Source of the DNA: Sandaracinaceae bacterium | GTDB lineage: Bacteria; Myxococcota_A; Polyangia; Polyangiales; Sandaracinaceae | Reading direction: 5' to 3' | Assembly: GCA_044220955.1 (NCBI GenBank) | Contig: JBGAQA010000012.1 | Coordinates: 1-19,257, forward strand | DNA length: 19,257 nucleotides | Part shown: piece after piece, positions 1 through 16,795 of the stretch | How the letters are laid out: each line of letters opens with the position of its first letter | How positions within the stretch are numbered: position 1 is the stretch's first letter | Made by a program: the position numbers and the translations under genes | The notes under the pieces: generated by a model | Told to the model about the DNA's origin: nothing | Database searches by the model: none | What the model saw: the letters and a program-made list of their open reading frames with translations, nothing else

Positions 1-2
1 CC

Positions 3-407
3 TGCCGCGCGTGCGCCGCAGACAGCGAGTGCTCGAGCGCGATGGATCGCTGCGTACCGATGCAGTTCATGGGCGCCGCCCACGGCAGCTACTGCCTGCG
101 GCAGTTCAGCGCCGGCTGCATGCGCCCGTACACGGTGCCGACCACGGCCCGCGCGAGCACGTCCGGCGCCGCCGCCGCGATGTACTGCGGAGTGGACGAG
201 ACCGTCACGAGCTGCGAGGCCGTGCAGTCGCTTCGCGACGACGTCAGCTGCACGGTCCCCGGGGACTGCGGGGCGACGGGAATCGACGACGGCCTGTGCC
301 AGACGGTGAACGGCGTCGCCAACAAGTGCACGTACGCGTGCGGCACGTCCGCCGACTGCCCGACTGGTCGGAATTGCGGCGGCGCCGGCTACTGCGGCTC
401 GCCCTGA
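3..407 (+). CDS. C-terminal part of a Cys-rich, probably secreted hypothetical protein (5'-truncated by the window edge)
   Basis: The frame of ORF 42..407 is open back to position 3 (CRACAADSECSSAMDRC...). It has GC-rich third positions, regularly spaced Cys (CTYACGTSADCPTGRNC) and a TGA at 405-407. Confidence 0.75.
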   Translation, partial: CRACAADSECSSAMDRCVPMQFMGAAHGSYCLRQFSAGCMRPYTVPTTARASTSGAAAAMYCGVDETVTSCEAVQSLRDDVSCTVPGDCGATGIDDGLCQTVNGVANKCTYACGTSADCPTGRNCGGAGYCGSP

Positions 408-464
408 ACGTCAGGCGCGTCGCTGAGCCGCCCTCGCATCCGTCCATTTTCTAGTGGTTTCTGA

Positions 465-537
<73 letters not shown>

Positions 538-548
538 GAGCAGCGAAA

Positions 549-577
549 CCGTTACCGTTTCCCGTCGGCCACGTCAA
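549..577 (-). promoter_or_regulatory. Putative sigma70-type promoter of tRNA-Gly
   Basis: Minus strand TTGACG (577-572), 17-bp spacer, then TAACGG (554-549), 11 nt upstream of the tRNA 5' end. The -10 match is weak. Confidence 0.55.
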
Positions 578-588
578 GCGCGGGAGCG

Positions 589-1812
589 TCAGAGGCCGAA
601 GGCGTCGATCGGGACGCGGGCGACGAAGGAGATGCTCGAGCCGCCCGTGGTGAGCGCGGTCCCGAGGATCACCGTTCCGTCGGTCGATGCCGCGAGCACG
701 TTCGTGAGCGCGTAGCCGTCGGGGATCGGGACGCCGGCCGCTGTGAGGATCTCCTGGAGCGGGCGCATGCCCATCGCGGCCGTCCACACGAACGCGGTCG
801 TGGCGCCGAAGCCGCCGCTGCCGCCGAAGACGAGCGCGCCCTGCGCGGCGATCGCGTTCGGGTACGTCGCGTCGCCGCCGAGGCCGCCGGGGAGCAGGCC
901 CATCGAGACGACGCCGCCCGCCTCGGTCCACACGAAGCCCTCCTGGTTCCAGATGCCCGCGAGCACGGAGCCGTCGGCGCTGATCGAGAGCACCTCGCCG
1001 GGCGCGTCGGGCGTGCTCCCCGGGAGCAGCATGCCCGTACCGTCGGCGTGCCAGACGGCGGGCCAGCGGTCGACCATGTCGGTCTGCGCGAAGCCCGCGA
1101 CCACCGATCCGTCGTCCGAGATCACGCTCGCGCGGTTCACCGGGAGGCCGCCGCCCGCCGGCGCCGAGCCGAGTCGGTCCAGCGCCGCGGCGGTGGTGCC
1201 GCTCGCGCCGCGCGTCCAGCGGTACGCGAGCGGCACGCAGCCGTCCCACGCGAGCCCGACCAGCACGCTGCCGTCGGCGCTCACGTCCCACGCGCCGGCG
1301 CGGTCGAAGTCGCAGCCGGTCGTGAACGGATCGGGCTCGTCGCTCCAGTCGCCGCTCTCGGTCCACGAGCCCGCGTGGATGGGCGTGCCGTGCAGCGCGG
1401 ACACACGCCCGGTCGCCGAGATGCCGGTGGCGAAGTCGTGCGCCGGGTCGCCCACCGTGGTCGCGAGGTGCAGCACGCCCGCCGCCACGTCGAAGAGATA
1501 CAGATCGCCCGCCGCGGAGCCGGGATCCTGGATCGCCGCCGTCGCGCCGTCCGGTGTGAGGTCGACGGGCCATCCGTAGTTGATCCACCGGATGCCGGTG
1601 CCCGTGAGGCCCGGGCCCGCGTCGGAGCCCGCATCGGGGCGCGCCGAGGCGTCTGCCGCCCCGGCGTCGAGCGCGCTCGCGGCATCGCCCGTCCCGGCGT
1701 CCGACACCGTCGCCGCGTCGGGCGAGGCCGCGGCGGGTCCGCCACACCCGGCGAGACCGAGCGCGGCCACGAGGAAGAACGGACCGAGCGGGAGCGTGCG
1801 GAGTGAGCCCAT
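589..1812 (-). CDS. Lipoprotein with extracellular beta-propeller-type repeats (HAF-repeat-like)
   Basis: ATG at 1812 gives MGSLRTLPLGPFFLVAALGLAGC (signal peptide plus LAGC lipobox), then a DAG-rich linker. About 7 repeats of the type AWDVSADGSVLVG / ASVISDDGSVVAG / VLSISADGSVLAG / VLAASTDGTVILG follow. The track start at 1962 would overlap the divergent gene. Confidence 0.8.
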   Translation of the reverse strand: MGSLRTLPLGPFFLVAALGLAGCGGPAAASPDAATVSDAGTGDAASALDAGAADASARPDAGSDAGPGLTGTGIRWINYGWPVDLTPDGATAAIQDPGSAAGDLYLFDVAAGVLHLATTVGDPAHDFATGISATGRVSALHGTPIHAGSWTESGDWSDEPDPFTTGCDFDRAGAWDVSADGSVLVGLAWDGCVPLAYRWTRGASGTTAAALDRLGSAPAGGGLPVNRASVISDDGSVVAGFAQTDMVDRWPAVWHADGTGMLLPGSTPDAPGEVLSISADGSVLAGIWNQEGFVWTEAGGVVSMGLLPGGLGGDATYPNAIAAQGALVFGGSGGFGATTAFVWTAAMGMRPLQEILTAAGVPIPDGYALTNVLAASTDGTVILGTALTTGGSSISFVARVPIDAFGL

Positions 1813-1836
1813 GCTCGTGATGTAGCGCCCTCTCGC

Positions 1837-1866
1837 GGGGCATACTTGGGCAACTTTGGGCAGCTT
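1837..1866. promoter_or_regulatory. Three tandem 10-bp direct repeats, candidate winged-helix regulator binding site
   Basis: The minus strand reads AAGCTGCCCA-AAGTTGCCCA-AGTATGCCCC. The TGCCC core recurs with exact 10-bp periodicity in the divergent promoter region. Confidence 0.55.
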
Positions 1867-4684
1867 CGATCCAGCACAGCGAATCCTCCTCGACGGCTGC
1901 GAGGTCGACCTCGGGCAGGCCGAGCTGGTGCGCGGCGCCGAGCGGCAGCGGCTCACGACCAAGGAGCTCGAGGTGCTCCACTATCTGGCGACGAACCCCG
2001 GGCGTCCGATCTCGCACGAGGAGCTGCTGGAGAAGGTGTGGGGCCACTCGCGGCTGGCCTCGACGCAGCCCGTCTACAGCGTGCTGAAGCGGCTCCGGCG
2101 CAAGGTCGACGGGCACGGCGAGCACCGGCACCTCGTCACCGTGCACGGCGTCGGCTACCGCTTCGAGCCGGCGCGCGCGACCGCCACGCAGCGCGCACCT
2201 CTCTCCACGCCCCCGCCTCCCGCCTCGTCGCTCGTCGGCCGCGACGTCGAGCTCACGGCGGTCGATGCGTGCTGGGACGAGGGCGCGCGCATCGTCTCGC
2301 TCGTCGGGCCGGGCGGCGCGGGCAAGACGGCCCTCGCGCGGGAGCTCGCGCTCCGCTGGGCGGCGCGTGTGCGGGACGTGGTCACGTGCGACCTCGCGTC
2401 GATCGACGCAGCGGGCGACGTGCGGCGCGCGGTGTCCCTCGCCGCCGGCGCCCGGGCGAGCGAGGGCGAGGACGCCGGCGGCCCGGACCCGATCCTCGCC
2501 GCGCTGCGCTCGCGCGGGTGCTGGGCCCTCACGCTCGACGGTGCCGAGCACCTGCTGGACGAGGTCGCGTCGCTCGCCGTCGAGCTCTCGCCCGCGGTTC
2601 GCGTGCTCGTCACTTCGCGTGAGCGGCTGGCGATCCCGGGCGAGCGCGCGATCGACGTGGGACCGCTCACGGCTCCCGACGGAGAGCGGCTCTTCCGCGA
2701 TCGGGCGCGCGCAGCGGGCGCGGCGATCGATCCTGGGGCGAGCGTGGCCGAGGTCGTGGCACAGCTCGACGGGCTGCCGCTCGCGATCGAGCTCGCGGCG
2801 GCGCACGCGGCCATCGTCTCGTTCGAGCGGGTGCAGCGCGAGCTCGACCGGCAGCTCGATCACCTCGTCGCCACGCGGCGCGGGGCCCCGGCGCGCCACG
2901 CGACGCTGCGCCGCTCGGTCGAGTGGTCGTGGGGACTGCTCGACCCGGAAGAGCGCGCGGTGCTCGCGCAGTGCACCGTGTTCGCCGGGGGATTCACGCT
3001 GGAGGCGGCCGACGCGGTGATCGCGGCATCGGGCAGCGGCCCGCGCCCCCGGCTCGTCCGGCTCCGCGAGCGCTCGCTCCTGCGCGTGCTCGCCGAGGGC
3101 GCGGGACGCGAGCGGCTCGGGCTCTACCGGACCGTCGCCGAGCTGGCGCACGAGCACCTGGCCGATCGCGACACGGTCGAGGAGCGGCACGCGGCCTGGG
3201 CGCACGCGCTCGTCGTCGAGAGCGGCGTGCTGGAAGACCCGCCGCGGCCCGGCGCGTTCGCGGTGCTCGCGCCGGAGATCGAGAACCTCGCCACGGCGCT
3301 GCGACGGGCGCTCTCGCGCTGGCCGGATCGCGCGGCCGACCTCGCGCTCGCGCACCACCACGTCACCGCGCGCACGAGCGGCCGCGGCGAGGACGCGCTG
3401 CTCCGGAGCGCGCTCGAGGTCGCGGGTCCGGAGAGCGCGCTGCGGCTGCGGCTCGTGCTGGGGCGTTCGCTGCAGCACCAGGGCGCCGAGGGCGCGCGCT
3501 TCCTCGACGAGACGGTGGAGCTCGCGCGCGCGTGCGGGAGCGTGCGGCAGGCTCTCGAGGCCGAGCGGCTCGCCGCCGCGGCGCGCACCGCGATGGGCGA
3601 GCCCGCCGCTGCCCTGGTCCGCCTCGCGACGCTCCTCGATCGCGCGCGCGCGGCGCACGACGCGGGCGTCGTGACGGGCCGGATCGCGCTCGATCTCGCC
3701 GAGGCACACCTCGCGTCGGGCAGCGTCGATCGCGCGGGCGTGCTGGCGACCGACGCCGCACGACGCCTCGAGGCCGGCCGGGATCCGAGCCAGGCCGCGC
3801 GCGCGGCGGGCGTGCTCGTGCACGTGCACCGCGAGAGGCGCGAGCACGAAGACGGCCTCGCGGCGCTCGAGCGCGCGCGGCGCCTGCTCGAGGAGGCGGG
3901 GGACGAGGTCGCGCTCGCGCGCCTCGAGCTCGATCGCGGCGTCTGGCTCGCCGACCTCGGGCGCTCGTCCGAGGCCGAGGCGGCGCTCGATGCGGCCATC
4001 GCGGCGCACCACCGGCTCGGCCTGGTCGCGGGCGAGATCCGCGCGCGCGACTGGATGGTGCTCGCCCTGCTCGGGCTCGGGAAGGACGCCGAGGCGCTCG
4101 CGCAGGCGCGCGAGATCCAGCAGCTCGGCATCGACCTCGGGCGGCGCGTGTACGAGGCCGAGCGCGCGTTCGGCGCGACCTGGCTCGTCACCGGCGCGAT
4201 CGACGACGCCGACCTCGCGTTCGGCCGCGCGCTGGACGTGCTCGCCGAGCGTGGGACCGCGACGGTACGCGGCCACGTGCTCTCCGCGCGCGCGCTCGCG
4301 CGCATCCTCGCCGGGAGGCTCGCCGACGCCGAGGTCGACCTCGCGGAGTGCGCGCGCATCCACGCAGGACGCGGGAGCGACGCTGCAGAGCGCCATGCCC
4401 TCGCTGAGCTCGCGCTGGCCCGCGAGCTCGCGTCACCGCGAGAGACGACCGACGCCGCGCTCGACGCGGCCGATGCGGGGGGAGGGAGCAGCTGGGACCA
4501 GCGCCACGCGCTCGGGCGTCGCGCCGTGGTGGCCATCGTCCGGGCGCGGCGCGCGGGACACACCCCGGCCGAGCTCGCGCGGCTCCACGCGGAAGCACGC
4601 GCCGCCCTCCTCGACGGCGCCGCCGCGCCGACCGACTACTTCACGCGCTGCTCGCTGCTGCTGATCGACCACGTCGCAGGCTGA
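1856..4684 (+). CDS. Transcriptional regulator: OmpR-type winged helix + STAND/NB-ARC-like ATPase + TPR-like helical repeats
   Basis: N-terminal Trans_reg_C-like segment (LTTKELEVLHYLA...ISHEELLEKVWG...LRRKV...LVTVHGVGYRF). Walker A GPGGAGKT, Walker B LTLDGAEHL, VLVTSRE, LDGLPLAIELAA and RHATLRRSVEWSW follow, then Ala/Leu-rich helical repeats. TTG start; an in-frame TAG at 1823-1825 limits upstream extension. Confidence 0.9.
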   Translation: MGSFDPAQRILLDGCEVDLGQAELVRGAERQRLTTKELEVLHYLATNPGRPISHEELLEKVWGHSRLASTQPVYSVLKRLRRKVDGHGEHRHLVTVHGVGYRFEPARATATQRAPLSTPPPPASSLVGRDVELTAVDACWDEGARIVSLVGPGGAGKTALARELALRWAARVRDVVTCDLASIDAAGDVRRAVSLAAGARASEGEDAGGPDPILAALRSRGCWALTLDGAEHLLDEVASLAVELSPAVRVLVTSRERLAIPGERAIDVGPLTAPDGERLFRDRARAAGAAIDPGASVAEVVAQLDGLPLAIELAAAHAAIVSFERVQRELDRQLDHLVATRRGAPARHATLRRSVEWSWGLLDPEERAVLAQCTVFAGGFTLEAADAVIAASGSGPRPRLVRLRERSLLRVLAEGAGRERLGLYRTVAELAHEHLADRDTVEERHAAWAHALVVESGVLEDPPRPGAFAVLAPEIENLATALRRALSRWPDRAADLALAHHHVTARTSGRGEDALLRSALEVAGPESALRLRLVLGRSLQHQGAEGARFLDETVELARACGSVRQALEAERLAAAARTAMGEPAAALVRLATLLDRARAAHDAGVVTGRIALDLAEAHLASGSVDRAGVLATDAARRLEAGRDPSQAARAAGVLVHVHRERREHEDGLAALERARRLLEEAGDEVALARLELDRGVWLADLGRSSEAEAALDAAIAAHHRLGLVAGEIRARDWMVLALLGLGKDAEALAQAREIQQLGIDLGRRVYEAERAFGATWLVTGAIDDADLAFGRALDVLAERGTATVRGHVLSARALARILAGRLADAEVDLAECARIHAGRGSDAAERHALAELALARELASPRETTDAALDAADAGGGSSWDQRHALGRRAVVAIVRARRAGHTPAELARLHAEARAALLDGAAAPTDYFTRCSLLLIDHVAG

Positions 4685-4721
4685 CCCCCGGCGCGTCCGC
4701 GGCGTGCTACGAACGCGACAA

Positions 4722-4765
4722 GGGTCCAGCGCGGGCTGGAGGATCGGATGGTCGGGCCGCCATCC
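4722..4765 (+). ncRNA. Candidate nhaA-I motif (Li+-I class) riboswitch in the nhaA leader
   Basis: GGG-TCCAGC-GCGG-GCTGGA hairpin, a short linker, then a GGATGG-TCGGGCCG-CCATCC hairpin. The GGTCGGGCCGCC core and two-hairpin layout match my recollection of the nhaA-I motif, and the element sits directly at the 5' end of nhaA. Confidence 0.7.
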
Positions 4766-6196
4766 ACGCCTCCCATGCGTCCGAGCTCGCCCGATCATCG
4801 CCCACCGACCGCCGCGGCTGCGCCTCCCGAGGCGTGGGAGCCGCTCGTGCGGCTCGGCCGGCTGGCGGGGAGGCCGCTCGAGCGCTTCCTGCGCATCGAG
4901 GCGGCGAGCGGCGTCGTGCTCGTCGTCACCGCGCTGGTCGCGCTCGCCTGGGCCACCTTCGCGAGCGCGAGCTACGAGGCGGTGTGGCAGACGCCCGTCG
5001 GCGTGCGCATCGGCGGCTGGTCGTTCGAGCAGACGCTCGCGTGGGTGGTGAACGACGGCCTCATGGTCGTCTTCTTCTTCGTCGTCGGGATGGAGATCCG
5101 GCGCGAGCTGCACCACGGCGAGCTGAGCGAGTGGCGGCGTGCCGCGCTCCCGGCGCTCGCGGCGCTCGGCGGGATGATCGCTCCGGCGCTCCTCTACCTC
5201 TCGGTCGCGTCGACGCCGGCCGCGCGGAGCGGCTGGGGCGTGCCGATGGCGACCGACATCGCGTTCGCGGTCGGCGTCCTGGCGCTGCTCGGCAAGCGCG
5301 TGCCGGCCGCGCTGCGCGTGCTGCTGCTCGCCCTGGCGGTGATCGACGACCTCGGCGCGATCGTCGTCATCGCGCTGTTCTACTCGTCGGGCGTCGCCCC
5401 GATCGGCCTCGGCGTCGCGGCGCTCGGGGTGGCAGCCATCCTCGCCATGCAGCGCTTCGGCGTGCGCACCAAGCTGCTCTACGTCGCTCCCGCGCTCGTC
5501 GCGTGGGCGGGCGTCTACGCGGCAGGCGTGCACCCGACGATCGCGGGCGTGATCGTGGGCCTGCTCACCCCGGTCCGGGCGTGGCTCGGCCACGACGGCT
5601 TCATCCGCGGCCTGCGCAAGGAGCTCGACGCGCTCGCCGCGGCGTCCCCCGCGGAGCGCTCGTCGCGCGAGCTGGCCGAGCACCTCGGGCACGTGGACGC
5701 GGCGCGCCGCGAGGCGATCTCGCCCGCCGAGAGCCTCATCGAGCGGCTGCACCCCTGGGTGGCGTTCGGGATCATGCCGCTCTTCGCGCTCGCGAACGCC
5801 GGCGTGCACGTCGAGGCGCTGCCTGCGGACATGGCCTCGCTCGCGGCGATGGGCGGCGTGATGCTCGGCCTCGTCGTGGGCAAGCCGCTCGGCATCCTCG
5901 TCACCTGCTTCCTCGCGGTGCGCCTGCGGGTCGCGACCCTGCCGGCGGGGATCGGCGCGCGGCAGCTCGTGGTGCTCGGGGCGGTCGCCGGGATCGGCTT
6001 CACGATGTCGATCTTCGTCGCCTCGCTCGCGTTCACCGGGCCCGCGCAGCTCGCGGCGGCCAAGCTCGGCGTGCTCGCGGGCAGCGCGATCGCGGCCGTC
6101 CTCGCGCTCGCGCTCGGGCGCTGGCTCCTACCCGTCACGACGAGCCCCGCGATCGCGGCGAGCGCGGACGAGGCCGAGAGCTCGACCGAGCAGTAG
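4748..6196 (+). CDS. nhaA: Na+/H+ antiporter NhaA
   Basis: Motifs WVVNDGLMVVFFFVVGMEIRRE, GWGVPMATDIAF, LAVIDDLGAI (DD ion-binding pair), GVHPTIAGV, PLFALANAGV, GKPLGI and GIGFTMSIF. The start is ambiguous: ATG 4748 has GGAGG at 4738-4742, and there is an in-frame ATG at 4775. Confidence 0.97.
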   Translation: MVGPPSTPPMRPSSPDHRPPTAAAAPPEAWEPLVRLGRLAGRPLERFLRIEAASGVVLVVTALVALAWATFASASYEAVWQTPVGVRIGGWSFEQTLAWVVNDGLMVVFFFVVGMEIRRELHHGELSEWRRAALPALAALGGMIAPALLYLSVASTPAARSGWGVPMATDIAFAVGVLALLGKRVPAALRVLLLALAVIDDLGAIVVIALFYSSGVAPIGLGVAALGVAAILAMQRFGVRTKLLYVAPALVAWAGVYAAGVHPTIAGVIVGLLTPVRAWLGHDGFIRGLRKELDALAAASPAERSSRELAEHLGHVDAARREAISPAESLIERLHPWVAFGIMPLFALANAGVHVEALPADMASLAAMGGVMLGLVVGKPLGILVTCFLAVRLRVATLPAGIGARQLVVLGAVAGIGFTMSIFVASLAFTGPAQLAAAKLGVLAGSAIAAVLALALGRWLLPVTTSPAIAASADEAESSTEQ

Positions 6197-6236
6197 CGCC
6201 GGGAATGTGCCGCACGCGCCGCGCGTACCACCCGCC

Positions 6237-7286
6237 GTGCGCTCCGCAGTCCGCGGCCTCGCGGCCCTCGCCATCGCCATCGCCCTCGCCCTCGCGCCCC
6301 CGGCACGCGCGAACTGGCTCGGCGCGGCCGCCGCCCACGAGGATCGCGAGGGGCCGATCGCCGTCTGGAGCGCCACCGAGCTGGCGGTGAGCCGGGACGA
6401 CGGCGCGAGCTTCACGACGCTCGCGATGCCGGTCACGAACGTTCGCCGCGTGCTCGTGGAGCGGAGCGGCGCGCTGCTGGTGCTCGGCGGGACGGCGGGC
6501 GGCGACCAGGCGCTGCTCACGCGTGTGCACCCCGACGGTGCGCTCGAGCCGATCGAGGTGCCCGGCTGGATCTCGGCCATCGAGACGGGCGGCGACGTGC
6601 TCGTGGGCCTCATGCCCTACGAGGGATCGGTCGTGATCTCGCGCAGCCGAGGGCCGCTCGCGACCTACCGCCTGCCGCCTCTCTTCGATCGCGCGGCGTG
6701 CACCGAGGACGGCGCCGCCGACGCCGCCGCCCTCGCCGAGTGCCTCGCGGAGCGCTCGATCTCGACGGACGCGTCGGTCGCGGTCGATCGCGACGGCACG
6801 GCGCACGTCGTCGACGTCGAGGTGAACACCTGCGGCAGCTCGGACCGACTCGAGTGGGCACGCACGATCACGGTCCACCCGGACGGCCACGCCCGTGACG
6901 CCCGCCTCCGGATCACGCCCGTCGATCCGGTGTACCCCACACGCTGGACCGCCGCGTGGCGCGGCTGGAGCTACGCCCTCGCGAGTGACGGTCGGCTCGC
7001 GTCGCTCGTCGCGGGCCGCACGCGAGTGCTCGAGGGAGCGCGCGGCGAGGCGTCTCCGGGCGGAACCGCGCTGGCGACGGTGGGCAACGGCGCGATCACG
7101 CTCGCGCAGGTGGGCCGAGGCGTCGTGCGCCTCGACGGCGATCGGGTCCGCGTGCTCGTGACGCTCGAGGGCGACGCCGACCTCGCCGACGTCGACGCGC
7201 GAGGCCGCGTGCTCGCCCTCTCGGCCGACGCGCTCCGGCGCTGGAGCCGCCGCTCCGGCTGGGAGACGCTGACGAGCGCGCGCTGA
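6237..7286 (+). CDS. Secreted hypothetical protein, beta-rich, with a possible BNR/Asp-box-like motif
   Basis: GTG at 6237 gives a signal peptide (RSAVRGLAALAIAIALALAPPARA). SRDDGASF resembles an Asp-box (SxDxGxTW/F). Alternative start at 6207. Confidence 0.65.
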   Translation: MRSAVRGLAALAIAIALALAPPARANWLGAAAAHEDREGPIAVWSATELAVSRDDGASFTTLAMPVTNVRRVLVERSGALLVLGGTAGGDQALLTRVHPDGALEPIEVPGWISAIETGGDVLVGLMPYEGSVVISRSRGPLATYRLPPLFDRAACTEDGAADAAALAECLAERSISTDASVAVDRDGTAHVVDVEVNTCGSSDRLEWARTITVHPDGHARDARLRITPVDPVYPTRWTAAWRGWSYALASDGRLASLVAGRTRVLEGARGEASPGGTALATVGNGAITLAQVGRGVVRLDGDRVRVLVTLEGDADLADVDARGRVLALSADALRRWSRRSGWETLTSAR

Positions 7287-7304
7287 GGGCGTCGCGCGCG
7301 CTCG

Positions 7305-8576
7305 TCAGCAGGCGGAGCCGCTCGGCAGGCACGCCCAGCCGACTCCAGTGGCCGTGAGGCACGCGCTGCAGTACGAGCCGGAGGCGCAGCCCGTGGTGCG
7401 GCAGTCTGCCGGGTCCACGCACGCGCCGGCGTACGCGACGTCGGTGCCGCTCGCCTCCGCGTCGCAGGGGTTCGAGTAGGTGTGACCGTCGCAGCCGCAC
7501 GTCGGCGAGTAGTAGAGCGGGCACGCGTCCGGGCGCGGCCGGCACATCCCTCGCGCGCCGCAGACGCCGCCCTCCGGCACGTCGCACCACTCGCTCGCGG
7601 CGCAGGGCGTCGCGCCTGGGCCGCCGCACTCGGTCGTGACGTCGCACGAGCCCACGCCCAGCACGGAGGTGCCCGCGGCGTTGGCCGCGCAGGCGTTGGG
7701 ATACGTGACGCCGTCGCAGCCGCAGACCGGCGCGTAGATCTCGATGCAAGCCTCGGGTCGCGGGCGGCACACGCCCGTCGCGTCGGCCGCGCCGCAGAGC
7801 GCGTCGGGGGCGTAGTCGCAGAACTCGTTCGCCTCGCAGGTGAAGCCGGCCAGCCCACCGCACGCGGACGTGCTGCACGCGCCCTCGTACGCGACGTCGA
7901 CCCCGGCGACGTTCGCGTCGCATGCGCTCGAGTAGGTGGCGCCGTCGCAGCCGCAGACCTGGCGCACCACGGGCGGGCACGCGAGCGGACGATGTCGGCA
8001 GACGCCGGACGCGCTCGCGCCGCAGCCGGAGGCGTCCGCATAGTCGCAGAACGACTGGGCGTCGCAGGTCCGCGCCGCGTCGCAGCCCAGCGCCTCGCAG
8101 CTCACGTGCGACGCGACGCACGCGGAGGACGTCGCCGCGATGCGGGCGCAGTCGACGCCGCGGCACGAGCACCCGACCAGGCCGGTGCACGCGGAGCCGT
8201 CCCAGTACCAGCCGAGCACCGCGTCGCACGCCCCCACGGCAGCGGCGTCCTCGGGTGTGCACGGGTCGTCGCACGCGCCCGAGCGCGCGACGTCGACGCC
8301 GGCTCCGTGCGCGACGCACGGGTTGTCGTACGTGTGCCCGTCGCAGCCGCAGACCGGGGAGGTGTAGGCCGGGCATGCGCCGGGAACGCCGGCACAGAGC
8401 CCGAGCGAGCCGCCGCGTCCACAGGCGTCCCCCTGGGGGTAGTCGCAGTAGGCTCCCGGCCCGCAGGCGCTCGTCCCGGAGCAGAGCAGCACCGGGTGGA
8501 CCTCGACGAGACACCCCGCGAGCGAGCATGTCGCGACGCCGAGCGCGGCCAGCCAGAGCGAAATCGGAGCGCGCAT
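7305..8576 (-). CDS. Cys-rich lipoprotein with four Kazal-type protease-inhibitor repeats and one Kunitz/BPTI-like segment
   Basis: GGAGG lies 7 nt before the ATG, followed by a signal peptide with an LAGC lipobox. Four copies of xCGCDGxTYxxxC: PVCGCDGHTYDNPC, QVCGCDGATYSSAC, PVCGCDGVTYPNAC, PTCGCDGHTYSNPC. Confidence 0.88.
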   Translation of the reverse strand: MRAPISLWLAALGVATCSLAGCLVEVHPVLLCSGTSACGPGAYCDYPQGDACGRGGSLGLCAGVPGACPAYTSPVCGCDGHTYDNPCVAHGAGVDVARSGACDDPCTPEDAAAVGACDAVLGWYWDGSACTGLVGCSCRGVDCARIAATSSACVASHVSCEALGCDAARTCDAQSFCDYADASGCGASASGVCRHRPLACPPVVRQVCGCDGATYSSACDANVAGVDVAYEGACSTSACGGLAGFTCEANEFCDYAPDALCGAADATGVCRPRPEACIEIYAPVCGCDGVTYPNACAANAAGTSVLGVGSCDVTTECGGPGATPCAASEWCDVPEGGVCGARGMCRPRPDACPLYYSPTCGCDGHTYSNPCDAEASGTDVAYAGACVDPADCRTTGCASGSYCSACLTATGVGWACLPSGSAC

Positions 8577-8720
8577 GACCGAACCTCCGTCGTCGACCTA
8601 GGCGCGGCGAGCGCGGGCGCAGGGGCGGGCCCGCGCCCCTGCTGCGAACACGCACGAGCCGGCCACGCGGGGCTGGCGGGACCGGCTGGCGAGGCGCGAT
8701 GGAGTGCTTACCGAGAGGTC

Positions 8721-9314
8721 ATGCAGCCACGCACTCGCTCGCTCCTGGTCGCGACGCTCTGCGCGGGGTTCCTCGCGCTCACGGCGATTTCCTGCGCACC
8801 GATCCACCGCCGCACCGGCTGGGCCACGTACTACGTGACGATCGAGGATCACGTCGTCGATCGCTTCGGGCTGGTGCAGAGCGCGCTCTGTGGCGACTAC
8901 GTCACCTTCGTCGGCGTGATCGACGCGACCTGCCCGGAGCACCCGATGGTGTGGTCGTACGCACAGGTCGTCGCGCTCGACTGCACGTACCGCAACGCCG
9001 CCGGCGGGTACGAGTACTACTGGGACTACTTCTCGTTCCCGGATGGGTACATCGCGGAGCCCGACTGCGACGGGCTGCACCGCCAGGGCGTGACGCAGGT
9101 CGCGCTCGGCTCGACGCCCGCCCAGCCGCGGGACGACGAGCACCGATTGCTCCTCGGGGCGGGCGTCGCCCTCGCCTCTCCGGCCCCGACGATCGCCGAC
9201 CTGCGCGTCGCGCTCGATGCCCACCTCGGTGGCCCGCCGGTCACCACGCTCGCCACCGACGCGCTCGGCGCCGCGCGCGTGAGCGCGGTGACGCTCGTGC
9301 CCGACACCGACTGA
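8721..9314 (+). CDS. Hypothetical lipoprotein (197 aa)
   Basis: GAGAGG precedes ATG 8721, giving MQPRTRSLLVATLCAGFLALTAISC (lipobox-like). The body is rich in aromatic residues and Cys. This is the 3' part of track ORF 7482..9314. Confidence 0.7.
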   Translation: MQPRTRSLLVATLCAGFLALTAISCAPIHRRTGWATYYVTIEDHVVDRFGLVQSALCGDYVTFVGVIDATCPEHPMVWSYAQVVALDCTYRNAAGGYEYYWDYFSFPDGYIAEPDCDGLHRQGVTQVALGSTPAQPRDDEHRLLLGAGVALASPAPTIADLRVALDAHLGGPPVTTLATDALGAARVSAVTLVPDTD

Positions 9315-9331
9315 GCCCGGGCGCCACGACC

Positions 9332-10195
9332 ATGTTCGGCACGATCATCGTCGCGACCGACTTCTCGCCGTGCGCCGCGAGGGCGGTGCGGGTCGCGGCG
9401 GCCTGGGCTGGTGCCCTCGATGCGACGCTCGACGTCGTTCACGTCTTCGACCTCCCGGTCCAGGCCGTGCCGCATGGCGGACCCTGGCTGAGCCCGGAGA
9501 TCGCACTTCGACACGGGCGCGAGCTGGGCGAGCGCCTCGAGCACGTCGTCGACGCTGCCCGCGCCAGCGCGTCGCGGACCAGCGGCGTCCTGCTCCGCGG
9601 ACGGCCCTACGACGCGATCGCGCGGCACGCCGCCGCGCGCCGAGCCGAGCTCGTCGTGGTGGGTGCGCACGGGCTCGGGATGCTCGAGCGCGCGCTCTTC
9701 GGGAGCGTGGCCGACCGCGTCGTCAGGACGGCCCCCTGCTCGGTGCTGGTGGTTCCCGAGCACGATCGCCCCGAGCTGCTGCCCAAGACGATGGTCGTGC
9801 CGACCGACTTCTCGACGCGCGCGACGCACACGGTGGAGCGTGCGCTCGATCTCGCGCGCACGCTCGGCGCGCGCGTCGAGATCCTGCATGCGTGGGAGTG
9901 GCCGCGCGGGGCGCCGCGCCAGGGCGGGCTCGCGGAGGACATCGCGGGCGCGGCGCTCGCGCGTGTCCGCGCGGCCCACCCGAGCGCCGCGGGCGTCGAG
10001 GTGCACCACCACGCACACGAGGCGGCACCCGCGGACGCGATCCTCGCCCTCGCGGCGCAGACACACGCGGATCTCGTCGTGATGGCCCCGAGCGGCGAGC
10101 GAGACCTCCCGGCACGGCTGCTCGGCAGCGTCACCGAGCGCGTCGTGCGGAGCGCGCTCGTGCCGGTGCTGGTGCTGCGCGACGCGCAGCCCTGA
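9332..10195 (+). CDS. Universal stress protein with two tandem USP domains
   Basis: Domain 1: MFGTIIVATDFS...ELVVVGAHGLGMLERALFGSVADRVVRTAPCSVLVV. Domain 2: TMVVPTDFS...DLVVMAPSG...LLGSVTERVVRSALVPVLVL. Confidence 0.93.
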   Translation: MFGTIIVATDFSPCAARAVRVAAAWAGALDATLDVVHVFDLPVQAVPHGGPWLSPEIALRHGRELGERLEHVVDAARASASRTSGVLLRGRPYDAIARHAAARRAELVVVGAHGLGMLERALFGSVADRVVRTAPCSVLVVPEHDRPELLPKTMVVPTDFSTRATHTVERALDLARTLGARVEILHAWEWPRGAPRQGGLAEDIAGAALARVRAAHPSAAGVEVHHHAHEAAPADAILALAAQTHADLVVMAPSGERDLPARLLGSVTERVVRSALVPVLVLRDAQP

Positions 10196-10242
10196 CGCTC
10201 GACACGCGCCGCGGGCACGGGGGCGGCGCCGACGCCCGGACG

Positions 10243-11277
10243 TCAGAAGTGCGGGACGCCGCAGCGGGTGCAGACGGAAGGGCAGGTCTCGTAGCCCGGC
10301 GCGCGGCCCGAGATCGAGGCCCAGAGCGCGCTCGGCCAGCCGAGCGGCGCGCTGCAGCCCCCGCCGTCGTCGGGGAGGTAGTAGTCGATCGGGTGCGTCG
10401 GGCGCGTGACGGCGCAGAAGTGCGCGGCGGTGGAGTGCCCGCCCGAGCAGACGCTGCCCGACGCGTCGGTGCCCATGTAGCCGGTGCGCGTCGTGCCCCC
10501 GCCCGAGAAGCCGACGACCCAGCCCGCCGGGTAGATGTGATCGGGGTGATCGGGATCGCTCAGCGAGACGAGCTGGACGGGACCGAGCGCCGTGTCGCTC
10601 CCGCCGAACTCCGAGTTGAGGTGAAGGTGGTTGAAGTGGATCCACTCACCGGAGTCGAGATCGGCGAACTCGGGCTGGAAGCCGGAGCCGGCCGTGTAGA
10701 CCGCCGTGAGCTGCGATCGATGCGGCAACGCGATCGGCGTGCCGTCGGCCATGTGGTAGTCGGTGTCCCAGTTCCCGCTCGTGTACTGGTACTGGTAGGT
10801 GATGCGGCAGTTCCACCAGTGCACGCACGCGCCGCCCGGGCAGTACGTGCTGGCGTTCGAGGTGGTGGGATCGGACGGACACACGTCGTTCACGCCCGTC
10901 GGCATCGACACGCAGGGGCCGTGCGCGCACGCGTCCGTCTCGGTGAGGCCGCCGACGCAGCGCTGGCGCGCGAGGCGGTCGGGCGTGCAGGTCCAGATGC
11001 TCGTGCTCCCCGAGGCGGAGTGGGAGCAGTCCGGCGGGCCGGCGTCGGGCGCCGGAGGCGCGACCGCGTCGGCGCCCGCGTCGACCGACGGCATGGCCGC
11101 ATCGGACCCGGGCGCGGCGTCGCGGCCGGGACCGGCGTCGACACCGGGAGCGCTCCCGTCGATGCGAGAGGACGCGTCGCCGCCCCCGTCGACCCGATCG
11201 CGCGAGCGCAGCTCCCCCTCGCACCCGGGGAGCGCCCCCAGCAGCAGCACGACGAGCAAGGCGATGCAGCGCGCCAT
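10243..11277 (-). CDS. Lipoprotein with a Cys-rich region and a divergent M23 (LytM) peptidase-like domain
   Basis: Signal peptide plus LPGC lipobox and a DAG linker. Then DYHMADGTPIAL, FNHL, PAGWVVGFSGG and STAAHFC occur in the order of the M23 motifs DxxxxxGTPVxA, YxHL, GxxIGxSG and STGPHLH. Confidence 0.7.
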   Translation of the reverse strand: MARCIALLVVLLLGALPGCEGELRSRDRVDGGGDASSRIDGSAPGVDAGPGRDAAPGSDAAMPSVDAGADAVAPPAPDAGPPDCSHSASGSTSIWTCTPDRLARQRCVGGLTETDACAHGPCVSMPTGVNDVCPSDPTTSNASTYCPGGACVHWWNCRITYQYQYTSGNWDTDYHMADGTPIALPHRSQLTAVYTAGSGFQPEFADLDSGEWIHFNHLHLNSEFGGSDTALGPVQLVSLSDPDHPDHIYPAGWVVGFSGGGTTRTGYMGTDASGSVCSGGHSTAAHFCAVTRPTHPIDYYLPDDGGGCSAPLGWPSALWASISGRAPGYETCPSVCTRCGVPHF

Positions 11278-11291
11278 GCGCCCATCGTAGG

Positions 11292-13025
11292 TCAGTTCGA
11301 GGCGGCCTGTGCGCCCTTGAGCAGCTCGCGCGCCGCGTCACGCGTCTTCTTGGTGATCGAGAGGCCCCCGAGCATCCGCGCGACCTCCTCGAGCCGATCC
11401 GCCGGGCCGAGCGGCTCGATCGTGCTGCGGGTGCGGCCGTCCTCGATCTGCTTCTTCACCTGGAAGTGCTGGTCGGCGTAGACCGCGATCGGCGCCAGGT
11501 GCGTGATCACCAGCACCTGATGGTGCCGCGCCACCTCCTTGAGCTTCTTGCCGATGACCTCGGCGACCGCGCCGCCGACACCCGTGTCCACCTCGTCGAA
11601 GACGTAGAGCCCCGACGCCCGACCCTCCGCCTCGCGCAGGCCGGCGAGCACCCGCTTGATCGCCAAGAGGGCCCGCGAGAGCTCGCCGCCCGACGCGATC
11701 CGGCGCAGCGGGCGCGCGTCCTCGCCGACGTTGGCGGCGATGAGCAGCTCGCAGCGATCGATCCCGCTGGCCGAGAGCCCGGCCCCGTCGACCGAGCGCT
11801 CACCGCCCGCATCGAGCGGAGCGACGTCCACCCTCACCTCCGCGCCGCCCATCCCGAGCGAGCCGAGCTCGTCCGTGATGGCGCGCCCGAGCCGGTCGGC
11901 CGCCTTCTTCCGAGCGGCCGAGAGCGCGCGGGCGAGGCGCGTGGCCGACTCCAGCGCGGCCGCCCGCGCACGCTCGCGCCCCTCGATCCGATCTTCGGCC
12001 GACGCGAGCGCATCCAGCTCGGAGCGCGCGCGATCGCGGAACGCGAGGACGCCCGCGATCGGATCCACGTCGCCGACCCCTCCGTGCTTGCGCGCCAGCC
12101 GACCGAGCCGGTGCAGCCGCTCGTCGACCTCGGAGAGCCGCTCGGGATCGGACGACACCCCGCGCGCGTAGTGGCCGAGATCGCGCGCGACCTCCTCGAG
12201 CTCCGCGCGAGCCGCCTCGAGCCGCTCGGCCGGACCGCGGAGGCGCGCGTCGACCCCAGCGGCCTCTTCGAGCGCCCGCCCGAGCTGCGCGAGCTCGTCC
12301 GCGATCGAGCGCTCGCGCGAGTAGATCGCGTCCTCCGCACCCCGGGCCGCCGCGAGGAGCTTCTCGGCGTGCTTGAGCCGGTCTCGCTCCGCCGCGAGCG
12401 CGCCGATCTCGCCGGGCTCGGGCGCGAGCGCCTCGATCTCCTTGAGCTGGAAGCGCAGCACGTCCTCGCGATCCTCGCGCCCGCGCGCCTGGTCCTTCGC
12501 CTCGGCGAGCGCCTCTTCGGCGGCCTTCAGCGTCGCGAACGCCGCCTTCATCTTCGCCCGCTCTGCCTCGAGCCGCCCGTAGGCGTCGAGGTACCCGAGG
12601 TGCCGCGCCGGATCCGTCAGCGAGTGGTGCTCGTGCTGAGAGCTGACGTCCGCCAGGCCCGCGGCGAGCTCCGCCAGCTCGCCCTGCGTCGCGAGGGTCC
12701 CGTTGACGTAGGCGCGCGAGCGGCCGCTCGCCGACACCACCCGCCGCACGATCAGCTCGTCGGTCCGGTCGATGCCGCGCGCCAGCAGCCGCTCGCGGAG
12801 GATCGCGTCCCCGGACACGTCGAACGTGGCCTCCACCTCGGCCTGCGGCGCGCCCGTCCGCACGAGCTCCGGCTTGCCCTTGGCGCCGAGCACCAGATCG
12901 ATCGCATCGACGAGGATGGACTTGCCGGCGCCCGTCTCCCCAGTGACGACGTTGAGGCCTGGGCCGAGCTCCACCTCCAGCTCGTCGATGATCGCGAAGC
13001 TCCGAACGCGCAGGAAGGTCAGCAC
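11292..13025 (-). CDS. recN: DNA repair protein RecN
   Basis: LRVRSFAIIDELEV, Walker A VVTGETGAGKSIL, GRSRAYVNG, Q-loop SQHEH, a coiled coil, signature ASGGELSR, Walker B FDEVDTGVGG and H-loop QVLVITHL. GTG at 13025 with GGAG 5 nt upstream is preferred over 13043. Confidence 0.97.
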   Translation of the reverse strand: MLTFLRVRSFAIIDELEVELGPGLNVVTGETGAGKSILVDAIDLVLGAKGKPELVRTGAPQAEVEATFDVSGDAILRERLLARGIDRTDELIVRRVVSASGRSRAYVNGTLATQGELAELAAGLADVSSQHEHHSLTDPARHLGYLDAYGRLEAERAKMKAAFATLKAAEEALAEAKDQARGREDREDVLRFQLKEIEALAPEPGEIGALAAERDRLKHAEKLLAAARGAEDAIYSRERSIADELAQLGRALEEAAGVDARLRGPAERLEAARAELEEVARDLGHYARGVSSDPERLSEVDERLHRLGRLARKHGGVGDVDPIAGVLAFRDRARSELDALASAEDRIEGRERARAAALESATRLARALSAARKKAADRLGRAITDELGSLGMGGAEVRVDVAPLDAGGERSVDGAGLSASGIDRCELLIAANVGEDARPLRRIASGGELSRALLAIKRVLAGLREAEGRASGLYVFDEVDTGVGGAVAEVIGKKLKEVARHHQVLVITHLAPIAVYADQHFQVKKQIEDGRTRSTIEPLGPADRLEEVARMLGGLSITKKTRDAARELLKGAQAASN

Positions 13026-13094
13026 CGTGGCTCCACTCTCCACCCGACGATTACCACGGCCGCCGACTGACGCGATCCGGTACCCTGGCGTCAG

Positions 13095-14621
13095 ATGCGT
13101 CTCGGGGCCCTCGCGCTCGCATTCCTCATCTCTCTGTCACTCGCTCCCGTGGCCCTCGCCCAGGGCGGGCGTCGGGTCGCCGTGGACCGCTTCCGCGGCC
13201 CGCGTGCCGCGCACGCGCGCAGCCTGCTCGTACGCGACCTGGAGGATCACGGCTACGTCGTCGTGAGCGACGCCGAGGTCACGGCCGCTCGCCGCGAGCT
13301 GGGCTACGGCGCCGGCACGCTCGAAGCGCAAGAGTACGTCGGCCTCGCGCGGGAGCTGCGCGTGGTCGCGTTCGTCGACGGTCGCGTCGGCCACGCCCAC
13401 CGGACGTGGCGGCTCGCCGTGCACGTGCGCAACGGCGCCGACGGATCGGATCTCGGCAGCGCCAGCTGGGGCGGCCGCACGCAGGGCGCGATCGACGGGA
13501 TCGGCCGCAACGGCGCCGAGCGCCTGCGCGAGTTCCTCGATGCCGCGACCGCGCCGGGCGCGGCGGTCCGCGCGACGCCCGACGGCGAGACGCCCTGGTA
13601 CGCCGGTGGCGCGGACGCCGAGGTCGCGGCGGAGGCCGACGAGGAGCCGGAGCACGAGGACGCGGAGCCCGAGCTCACCGACGCGAGCACGCGCTACGAC
13701 TGGCTCCGCTTCTCGGCCTCGGGCGGCTCGCTCTGGCGCTCGATGCAGGCCGACGCGCGCGTCTACGCGGTGCGCCGCGGCATCGCGGCCGCCGATCCGG
13801 GCACCGAGCTGGTTCACGAAGGGCGCGGCTACACCTCGAGCGGCATCGGCCACGCGGAGCTCGGCCTCGAGGCCGAGTTCTTCCCGGGCGCGCTCGGCAA
13901 CCAGCCCTTCCCCTACCTCGGGCTCGTCACGTCGTTCCGGCACTCGGTTCTGCTCGGCTCCTCGGGCTGCCGCCGGACGTCGCCCGACTGCACCTCCGGG
14001 GGGCGCGTCGGGGTCGGCACGGACCAGCTCGACGTCCAGGCCGGGCTGCGCTTCCGGTATCGCCTCGGGGCGAGCCGGCGCGACGTGCAGCTCTTCGGCG
14101 ACGTCGTGTACGGCTACTCGACCTTCACGTTCGACACGGCCGCCCTGCAAGAGCTCGACTACCAGGCGATCCTGCCGCCGATGGAGTACCAGTGGCTCGG
14201 GATCTCCGTCGGCCTCGACTACGGGATCATCCCGGACGTGCTCTTCGTACAGGCGCGCGGCGGCTACCGGATCGGCGTGGGGCTCGGCACGCAGGCGCGC
14301 AACGTCTGGGGCATCGACTCGAGCAACGCGGGAGGCTTCGATCTGAGCCTCGAGCTCAAGCACGAGGCCAACTGGCTCGCGCAGGGCATCTTCGTGAGCC
14401 TGCGCTTCGAGTACTTCCAGTTCACCACGAACTTCCGCGGCCAGGTCGGCTGCGCGACCACGTCCTGCTCGCCGACGGGCACCCAGCCCTGGACGAACAA
14501 CGATCTCTGGGAGCTCTGGCCGGTCGGCCCCGACAACTCCACGGTCGTCGGCGGCATCCGCGACGCAGTGCCGGACAACTACGTCCGCTGGGGGCTCTAC
14601 CTCGGCTACGCGTTCCGCTGA
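13095..14621 (+). CDS. Secreted protein, probable outer-membrane beta-barrel with an N-terminal periplasmic alpha/beta domain
   Basis: Signal peptide (MRLGALALAFLISLSLAPVALA), an N-terminal domain and an acidic linker (EADEEPEHEDAEPE). Many amphipathic aromatic strands follow (VQAGLRFRYRL, GISVGLDYG, FVSLRFEYFQF), ending in WGLYLGYAFR. Confidence 0.75.
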   Translation: MRLGALALAFLISLSLAPVALAQGGRRVAVDRFRGPRAAHARSLLVRDLEDHGYVVVSDAEVTAARRELGYGAGTLEAQEYVGLARELRVVAFVDGRVGHAHRTWRLAVHVRNGADGSDLGSASWGGRTQGAIDGIGRNGAERLREFLDAATAPGAAVRATPDGETPWYAGGADAEVAAEADEEPEHEDAEPELTDASTRYDWLRFSASGGSLWRSMQADARVYAVRRGIAAADPGTELVHEGRGYTSSGIGHAELGLEAEFFPGALGNQPFPYLGLVTSFRHSVLLGSSGCRRTSPDCTSGGRVGVGTDQLDVQAGLRFRYRLGASRRDVQLFGDVVYGYSTFTFDTAALQELDYQAILPPMEYQWLGISVGLDYGIIPDVLFVQARGGYRIGVGLGTQARNVWGIDSSNAGGFDLSLELKHEANWLAQGIFVSLRFEYFQFTTNFRGQVGCATTSCSPTGTQPWTNNDLWELWPVGPDNSTVVGGIRDAVPDNYVRWGLYLGYAFR

Positions 14622-15040
14622 CGCCGGCGCGTCCGACGCGCCCGGACGATCGACGCCAGGGCCATCGACGCCGAGAGCGCGAGCGGGGCCATCCGCTCGC
14701 TCACGCCGCCGCGCGTGGGCACCGACACCGAGCACCCGTGCCTCTGCTCCGGCGGCGCCTGCGTCGCGGGACCGCTGCAGTAGAGGGCGAAGCCGACGGT
14801 GGCCCCGCCTCCGGCGCATCGAGGGATCATGCCCCGCGCGCGGAGCCCCTGGTCCGCCTGCACGTCCACCTCTCCATGGAACGTCGAGACCGACTCGCAG
14901 GGCCCGCCGCCGAGCCCTTCTTGCGTGGGAACCGTGCACGTCTCGACGAACCCGGGATCCGGCGGAACGTCGGCGGCCGCGGAGCGAGCGCCGGCGAACG
15001 TGGCGAGCGCCGTGAGGAGCGCGAGCTTGCGGGGCGTCAT
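14606..15040 (-). CDS. Small secreted protein with a MYXO-CTERM-like sorting tail (144 aa)
   Basis: ATG at 15040 gives MTPRKLALLTALATFAGARSAAA-DVPPDP. There are four Cys in the body and a C-terminal GCSVS...hydrophobic stretch...RARRTRRR. It overlaps the convergent gene by 16 bp. Confidence 0.7.
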   Translation of the reverse strand: MTPRKLALLTALATFAGARSAAADVPPDPGFVETCTVPTQEGLGGGPCESVSTFHGEVDVQADQGLRARGMIPRCAGGGATVGFALYCSGPATQAPPEQRHGCSVSVPTRGGVSERMAPLALSASMALASIVRARRTRRRQRNA

Positions 15041-15094
15041 GGGGAGCGAGCCTATCGCGTTGTGCGGGCGCGGCCGAGGAGGCACCGTCCCGGG

Positions 15095-16703: not shown

Positions 16704-16745
16704 CTCTGACGTACGGGGGCGCGCCCGGGTTTGATCCCCGGCCGC

Positions 16746-16789
16746 TTGACCCGGCAGGCCAGGACGCGTATCCATCCGTTCATCCGGAT
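16746..16789 (+). promoter_or_regulatory. Putative sigma70 promoter with a palindromic operator ATCCG-N6-CGGAT
   Basis: TTGACC (16746-16751), 17 bp, then TATCCA (16769-16774). The palindrome ATCCG-TTCATC-CGGAT (16774-16789) covers the likely start site and ends 6 nt before ATG 16796. Confidence 0.65.
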
Positions 16790-16795
16790 TCACAG

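Follow-up and report, generated by a model that had tools for sequence, protein, structure and literature searches.

The stretch of DNA considered here (the window) comprises 19,257 nucleotides from a Sandaracinaceae bacterium (GCA_044220955.1, contig JBGAQA010000012.1, positions 1-19,257), and all coordinates are counted on it. Its nhaA gene, which encodes a Na+(Li+)/H+ antiporter, is preceded by a short leader that an initial annotation had proposed to be an ion-sensing riboswitch of the nhaA-I type. A cmscan search of the whole window against Rfam gave two matches, one a tRNA and the other the nhaA-I motif (RF03057) at positions 4722-4765, where the score of 41.5 bits (E-value 2.3e-5) exceeds the gathering cut-off of 37 and supports the proposed type. 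The aptamer sits directly 5ˊ of nhaA, the cation-transporter context of RF03057, and its conserved bases (GGGU, AGG, P1, P2 and the P2 loop) are all intact. The window copy belongs to the nhaA-I motif family. The aptamer class itself is already known; the design of the leader is unusual and is seen in one lineage only. The features of the locus are as follows.

1856-4684, + strand: upstream gene with winged-helix Trans_reg_C, AAA_22 and helical repeats, ending 37 nt before the aptamer
4704-4713, + strand: extended −10-like element GTGCTACGAA, 18 nt upstream of the aptamer, fitting the GTGCnAnnnT motif of orthologs minus its final T
4722-4765, + strand: nhaA-I aptamer (RF03057)
4722-4725, + strand: conserved 5ˊ GGGU (Rfam alignment)
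4726-4739, + strand: P1, 5 bp (CCAGC/GCUGG) with a GCGG loop; basal pair C4726-G4739, G-C in orthologs
4738-4742, + strand: GGAGG, made of the last two P1 bases and the conserved AGG junction; strong Shine-Dalgarno (SD) match, 5 nt before ATG 4748
4746-4765, + strand: P2 with its conserved loop; U4752 is position 54 of the D. propionicus RNA
4748-4750, + strand: ATG within the 5ˊ arm of P2, continuing in frame into nhaA without a stop; candidate start
4766-4774, + strand: spacer of 9 nt without hairpin or SD
4769-4773, + strand: CCUCC, complementary to GGAGG, directly before ATG 4775; not conserved
4775-4777, + strand: ATG at the orthologous start position; preferred start
4775-6196, + strand: nhaA (TIGR00773, PF06965), 473 aa, or 482 from 4748
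4789-4799, + strand: 11-nt complement of 4747-4757 (10 Watson-Crick pairs and 1 G-U) within the coding region, which could form a second anti-aptamer helix

The elements named in the initial annotation lie where it placed them, including the P1 arms TCCAGC (4725-4730) and GCTGGA (4735-4740), the P2 arms GGATGG (4746-4751) and CCATCC (4760-4765) enclosing TCGGGCCG (4752-4759), GGAGG, CCTCC, the TG-C-TACGAA element at 4705-4713, and the ATG codons at 4748 and 4775, each in frame with nhaA. The P1 stem is real, yet it has 5 bp and not the 6 that were claimed, as U4725 and A4740, which belong to the conserved GGGU and AGG, stay unpaired in the Rfam model. In the same alignment, P2 is closed by U4752-G4759. 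A permissive Rfam scan of 4600-4900, up to an E-value of 10, returned three matches, with neither the DUF1646 (Na+-I) nor the nhaA-II (Li+-II) motif among them; the F6 and IRES matches were rejected as far below their own cut-offs.

The motif is present in 23 of 101 related genomes, the window's own genome counted, and the window copy ranks 28th by score among the 30 nhaA-I matches found there. In genome G004 (L001) the aptamer precedes a gene other than nhaA, and other genomes of the window's genus (L234, L240, L242, L247) have an nhaA gene without the aptamer in the stretch examined. Genome G007 carries two copies on one strand about 690 nt apart (C1:6712045-6712784; L003, L024) before genes other than nhaA, and G007 and G091 have three copies each.

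The product of nhaA scores 381.9 bits against TIGR00773 (cut-off 254) and also matches PF06965. When aligned to solved NhaA chains, its ATDIAF, IDD and GKPLG motifs, which we take to have a catalytic role, are intact. Only this nhaA was found in the window's genome, which is 88% complete. Its closest relatives are mostly from Myxococcota, with identities of up to 79%, and a protein-based locus search yielded distant nhaA genes for the most part. A quick tree of 43 NhaA fragments gave no supported sister group, and therefore no order of events can be deduced from it.

Orthologous leaders and C-G-type aptamers

A search pattern that combined the P2 core with the PEAW codons conserved in nhaA, at a distance limited to 58-88 nt, matched 113 loci. 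Together with two metagenome loci, these provided 62 distinct orthologous leaders (within L386-L496) that have a full aptamer and an NhaA frame, with either G-C or C-G required at the base of P1. Stem positions that the search pattern left free, and that can thus be used to assess covariation, are P1 pairs 2-5 and P2 pairs 3-6. These are paired in 60-62 of the 62 leaders by several pair types, in keeping with the expectation of stems conserved among relatives. All but two of the 62 have a start codon 20-40 nt past P2 and a spacer hairpin with an energy no weaker than −5 kcal/mol; in the free ensemble, 51 of these 60 pair their SD region with either the loop or the P2 3ˊ arm. The orthologous leaders therefore appear to share a translational platform, apparently undescribed, in which an extension of the spacer hairpin pairs the SD region with the 3ˊ side of P2.

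Conservation also extends upstream of the aptamer. The sequence GTGCnA is found 19-39 nt upstream of 35 of the 62 orthologous aptamers (shuffled sequences gave a mean of 2 and a maximum of 7, and a distal control 0), and 29 of these 35 have a T four bases after it. GTGCTA is rare in the window's genome, with a chance of 0.0006 per 35 nt. The extended −10-like element that had been noted before the aptamer matches this conserved motif, although its TACGAA lacks the last T and a sigma-70 promoter scan of 4200-5200 found no promoter. An RNA start near 4720 is plausible from these letters. Transcription of the gene that ends at 4684 might also read through into the leader, because no terminator lies between that gene and the aptamer.

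The window copy departs from its orthologs in two respects. The base of P1 is G-C in all 62 orthologous leaders, and among 96 nhaA-linked aptamers, a few of whose links rest on weak tblastn matches, only the window copy has C-G while the other 95 have G-C. This pair turns GCAGG into GGAGG, which is predicted to pair with the 16S tail of the same genome at −9.3 kcal/mol. The remainder of P1 in the window copy (CAGC/GCUG) is of the ortholog type, as G-CAGC occurs in 25 of 62 orthologs and C-CAGC in 2 of the 62 C-G types listed, and the basal-pair swap therefore probably arose in place. The second departure is the loss of the spacer hairpin that nearly all orthologs keep. An assembly slip as the cause of the short spacer was excluded by a contig from another study (X13) that is identical over 4631-4781. 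In a related strain (X2), among the 40 of 176 differences listed, six substitutions and two indels fall at 4678-4702 and none at 4703-4788. Our literature search, which covered few subscription papers, turned up no work on nhaA-I leaders of myxobacteria and none that places the start codon within an nhaA-I aptamer.

Aptamers with C-G at the base of P1 are common elsewhere. Pattern scans that required U at position 54 detected them in Elusimicrobia, Verrucomicrobiota, Omnitrophota and other groups; these and all further counts of C-G types, and of the G-C types compared with them, refer to the matches listed. Terminator-like tails follow 22 of 62 C-G types versus 1 of 87 G-C types. Among 63 open reading frames (ORFs) downstream of C-G types, 15 have Pfam matches and none is NhaA; the matches include Na/H exchanger (2), DUF1646 (2), Na/Ca exchanger (2), GT20 (2) and Rnf-Nqr (1). 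Aptamers with the C-G basal pair thus form a widespread subgroup that is associated with terminators and with Na+ and osmotic genes. Its C-G/U54 members (L111-L231), which precede genes for Na+ transport, Rnf-Nqr, DUF1646 and trehalose-phosphate synthase, are candidates for natural Na+ or broad-range sensors. GGAGG together with an AUG or GUG in P2 is the ordinary sequence of a C-G-type aptamer (59 of 62), often before terminators.

Two of these leaders resemble the window copy in part. One C-G aptamer (L196) is followed by a 7-nt spacer that lacks an SD; the spacer sequence pairs with the loop and 5ˊ arm of P2, and this pairing also takes in the leader's own start codon. Its P2 AUG is out of frame, and therefore such a leader design does not need that AUG. 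In another (L146), the stop codon of a mini-ORF beginning in P2 overlaps the next start. A complement of the junction just before the start codon also occurs in several proteobacterial leaders of the G-C type (e.g. L282, L308 and L335), and by eye in the validated A. caulinodans construct (PMC9646797 supplement). As drawn from that supplement by eye, the A. caulinodans reporter has the aptamer followed by an SD, the junction complement and an AUG opening a 28-codon ORF, whose stop overlaps a second AUG with its SD in a hairpin. This reporter may work through translational coupling, of which the portion of the main text considered here makes no mention.

Competing folds and candidate start codons

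The initial annotation envisaged that CCTCC pairs with the SD, extends P2 and competes with P1. This fold is the predicted minimum-energy structure for transcripts ending at 4773-4795. For an RNA from 4720 to 4773, the GGAGG:CCUCC fold with extended P2 reaches −24.8 kcal/mol versus −18.5 kcal/mol for the locked aptamer. From 4810 on, the best fold is instead an 11-bp helix between 4747-4757, which covers the P2 5ˊ arm and the conserved loop, and 4789-4799; the GGAGG:CCUCC fold trails it by 1.4 kcal/mol at 4810 and 4860 and by 7 at 4830. This longer rival helix had been overlooked, as had the nature of GGAGG as part of the core of a Na+-II-type aptamer. By nearest-neighbour energies, the aptamer is less stable than the rival folds by 6-19 kcal/mol.

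These helices are not strongly set apart from chance. A CCTCC within the first 12 nt after P2 arises in 244 of 5000 shuffles and is thus weak evidence by itself, and a helix equal to 4747-4757:4789-4799 arises in 86 of 2000 shuffles and in 35 of 2000 genome 60-mers. The fold of 4718-4800 is no better than that of shuffled sequences (z −1.12, with 27 of 200 as good). A conserved CCUCC anti-SD was rejected, because this sequence follows P2 in only 1 of 61 C-G types, the window copy itself, and in 6 of 86 G-C types. A conserved helix against the P2 5ˊ arm was likewise rejected, with at least 8 Watson-Crick pairs in 4 of 146 aptamers, which is near chance. A transcription-terminator mechanism was also set aside, since a scan of 4200-5200 found no terminator after P2 and a single terminator-like site (5054-5071) inside nhaA.

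The aptamer had also been suggested to overlap the first codons of nhaA (MVGPP). This does not hold as a property of the family. The triplet at the P2 position of the 62 orthologous leaders is ATG in 48, GTG in 10 and another in 4, and its frame relative to nhaA is distributed 20/20/22, with an open in-frame path in 15. For the 25 C-G types with an identified gene the frames are 9/5/11, with 9 in frame and 5 of these open, and no enrichment is seen. These counts rule out the P2 AUG as a general start, and because the frame is random, the AUG in P2 is, on sequence grounds, a base-paired aptamer position across the family and not a start. The window copy alone combines the loss of the downstream hairpin and SD with the gain of a perfect SD located 5 nt ahead of an AUG in the nhaA frame, and initiation at 4748 may therefore occur there.

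The distance from the start to the E of PEAW is 18 codons from AUG 4775 and 27 from AUG 4748, compared with 10-19 (mode 17) in orthologs. The 5-nt spacing between GGAGG and ATG 4748 is the shortest seen. We surveyed 122 unambiguous starts of the window's genome, a small subset picked by a crude ORF rule, and a GGAG, GAGG or AGGA word is absent from 87 of them (present in 35 of 122 versus 107 of 1000 internal controls). Leaderless-looking starts number 22, and 65 of the 122 lack both an SD and a leaderless-type −10 element. Starts without an SD are common in this genome. A TAnnnT sequence ends 5-14 nt before many of its starts, which suggests frequent leaderless genes.

The local opening energy is 14.1 kcal/mol for AUG 4775 and 18.5 for AUG 4748, where genome starts have a median of 12.2 and a 90th percentile of 18.4. 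Opening a footprint of −9 to +15 around AUG 4775 requires 4.3-8.8 kcal/mol with the aptamer locked versus 13.8-15.1 in the free ensemble. AUG 4775 is therefore cheaper to open in the aptamer state, the direction needed by an ON switch. Whether the RNA adopts the aptamer fold or either rival fold, AUG 4748 is base-paired, and for this reason it fits an ON switch badly; opening it requires 8.3-20.6 kcal/mol in the aptamer state versus 16.3-27.9 in the free ensemble. A GTG at 4847 with GGGAG 6 nt upstream was rejected as a start, because the protein would then lack the conserved PEAW motif, and because the codon is enclosed in a strong hairpin.

Possible modes of control and ion specificity

RNAs of the nhaA-I class are ON switches activated by Li+ with a KD of about 20-30 mM, in which ion binding stabilizes the base of P1, the junction and the P2 loop and switches on expression (White 2022, PMC9646797, in the parts of the article used here, as for the other sources cited below). 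That most of them act on ribosome access is put forward by those authors as speculation only. A terminator-bearing 'hypo' variant from D. propionicus responds to Na+ and defines Na+-II. In this RNA, the exchange C54U (mutant M4) gives a response to Li+, Na+ and NH4+, and alteration of the junction GG (mutant M2) abolishes the response. Position 54 is U in most nhaA-I RNAs and C in the tested Na+-II RNA, and selectivity has been tied to this position rather than to the P1 pair (PMC9646797). The Li+ constructs from P. monteilii, R. eutropha and A. caulinodans have G-C at the base of P1 (PMC9646797 supplements), as does the Rfam consensus.

The window copy shares with Li+-I RNAs (RF03057; Weinberg 2017, PMC5737381; White 2022, PMC9646797) the GGGU, AGG, P1, P2 and loop elements, U54 and the position 5ˊ of nhaA, and having no terminator it is presumably translational. 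It differs in the C-G basal pair, a very short P1, the lack of an SD between aptamer and gene, and the missing spacer hairpin. Where Li+-I RNAs would control a downstream ribosome binding site (RBS), the window copy has no downstream SD and has rival folds that are predicted and not conserved. With the Na+-II RNA it has in common the GGGUCC...GGAGG base of P1, a pair seen in the prototype sequence and not called defining in the text considered. That tested RNA has C54, an intrinsic terminator and a hypothetical gene, in contrast to U4752, no terminator and nhaA here (PMC9646797). Because one tested Li+-I feature (the P1 base pair) and two Na+-II features (C54 and the terminator) fail, the window copy is, on sequence grounds, filed under neither subclass. 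Its combination of a C-G basal pair with U54, ahead of nhaA, is that of the laboratory mutant M4 (PMC9646797), and the ligand is therefore probably Na+ as well as Li+. The base pair of P1 may have a role in ion selectivity. As discrimination between Li+ and Na+ has so far been tied to one position, the 80-nt leader would offer a natural counterpart of M4 before nhaA. Na+-I riboswitches (DUF1646 motif, PMC9337991) are alike in their two-stem layout, conserved P1 base and P2 loop, and ON logic; they are typically terminator-based, and the window has no match to their model at 4600-4900.

The window copy most likely works like a Li+/Na+ ON switch. Our preferred reading, which we hold with a little less than even confidence, is that an alkali-cation riboswitch of the nhaA-I family acts as a translational ON switch on nhaA, with AUG 4775 as the start and a remodelled expression platform. 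The RNA would begin near 4720, and P1 and P2 would fold first. Without the ion, CCUCC (4769-4773) would capture GGAGG, or 4789-4799 would capture the P2 5ˊ arm and loop, and either rival fold would destroy the aptamer and enclose AUG 4775 in a long hairpin, which would keep translation low. With Li+ or Na+ bound, the aptamer would hold out against invasion for a time sufficient to keep 4766-4800 open, and ribosomes would then initiate at the ancestral AUG 4775 without an SD. Because the rival folds are the more stable by so much, control by this route must be kinetic. Alternatively, we infer that the tertiary stability of the aptamer may be underestimated, since the energy gap far exceeds what the binding of a millimolar ion can pay at equilibrium. 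In the orthologs, the 62 leaders point to a shared platform for the non-terminator control on which PMC9646797 speculated, and the window copy would be a natural deletion of it.

This reading is favoured by the Rfam match and the NhaA identity, by the ortholog-like N-terminal length from AUG 4775, by the opening costs with a −9 to +15 footprint, by the frequency of starts without an SD in this genome, by the junction complements ahead of other starts, by leader L196, and by the differences listed for strain X2. Several results weigh against it. Neither rival helix is conserved, each is at a 2-5% chance level, and the total duplex energy is ordinary, being equalled in 762 of 2000 shuffles. The aptamer lies 16.1 kcal/mol above the free fold, a gap at rank 126 of 146 and above the family median of 11. 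SD pairing at AUG 4775 is +1.9 kcal/mol, i.e. none, compared with the −9.3 available to AUG 4748. The predicted ON direction depends on the assumed footprint, because one of −12 to +12, which reaches P2, leaves AUG 4775 not more open in the aptamer state (10.7-14.8 versus 7.6-9.0 kcal/mol) and so disagrees with the result for −9 to +15. No second leader of the window's design was recovered: two metagenome pattern scans gave 0 and 2 matches, neither an nhaA leader, and the 62 leaders of a genome scan were all of the G-C type. Finally, this reading leaves unexplained why the C-G swap and the spacer loss coincide in one copy.

That coincidence of two rare features, a C-G pair seen once in 96 and the loss of a hairpin kept in 60 of 62, argues for a start that has moved into the aptamer, such that NhaA begins with MVGPP at 4748 and the aptamer overlaps codons 1-6. 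We consider this unlikely, yet a serious contender. The downstream SD would have been lost, C4739G would have created GGAGG 5 nt before AUG 4748, and G4726C would have restored P1. CCUCC would then be a classical anti-SD, and the ion would either favour the less closed aptamer fold (a weak ON response) or lock the SD and AUG (direct occlusion, OFF). The probable origin of the swap in place, the strength and spacing of the SD, and the lower cost of opening AUG 4748 in the aptamer state are consistent with this. It is opposed by the pairing of this AUG in all folds, with an opening energy at the 90th percentile of genome starts, and by the ease with which an in-frame path from P2 is open by chance, as in 15 of 62 orthologs and 5 of 25 C-G types. 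GGAGG with a P2 AUG or GUG is, moreover, simply C-G-type sequence, an OFF response would be the wrong way round for an exporter, and AUG 4775 is retained. A strong SD and an in-frame AUG do lie inside the window aptamer, and the frame statistics argue against such a use across the family. We hold as doubtful the evolutionary form of this idea, that the nhaA start moved into the ion sensor with the P1-pair swap offsetting the lost platform, so that aptamer, RBS and the first six codons became one 44-nt sequence and the swap may have widened the response from Li+ to Na+. If it were true, two substitutions and one deletion would have changed the platform and ligand range, and possibly the sign, of a natural riboswitch; initiation at 4748 would furnish a case of an aptamer overlapping the start of its own coding region. 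The nearest likeness would be to direct-occlusion switches such as SAM-II and preQ1-I (PMC10907184), which also have an SD inside the aptamer. Their SD lies at the aptamer 3ˊ end and the ligand turns translation off, whereas in the window it lies mid-aptamer, with the start and six codons in P2, in an ON class.

The large energy gap and the chance-level rival helices would fit a decaying or weakly regulating switch, in which the platform has been deleted, the aptamer persists, and nhaA output is low or near constant, set by the promoter, upstream read-through or stable local structure. The score at the low end of the family, the promoter-like element without the T kept in most orthologs, and the same-genus nhaA genes lacking an aptamer are compatible with such decay. 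It is nevertheless rather improbable, as the P1 swap is a double change that preserves the pair, all conserved bases are intact, strain X2 keeps 4703-4788 while the flank changes, as far as the differences listed show, and nhaA is intact and single-copy. We give still less credence to a role for both AUG codons, in which GGAGG would load the 30S subunit when the aptamer is open and so yield two N-termini or hand ribosomes on to AUG 4775. The two codons share the nhaA frame at a distance of 27 nt, the N-terminal tail varies in length, and overlapping stop and start codons occur in L146 and the A. caulinodans construct; against this, no frame is enriched among the C-G types.

Surrounding genes

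Directly behind nhaA lies a 359-aa ORF (6207-7286, + strand) that has a signal-like N-terminus and lacks any match in NCBIfam or Pfam, followed by a gene for a Cys-rich repeat protein (7305-8576, − strand). The tRNA detected in the Rfam search (465-537, − strand) has the anticodon CCC and was read from the alignment as tRNA-Gly. A methyltransferase-domain gene (16796-17743, + strand), whose N-terminal part we take to be ArsR-like, overlaps the start of the gene at 17740-19257 (+ strand), which is presumably methionine synthase-like.

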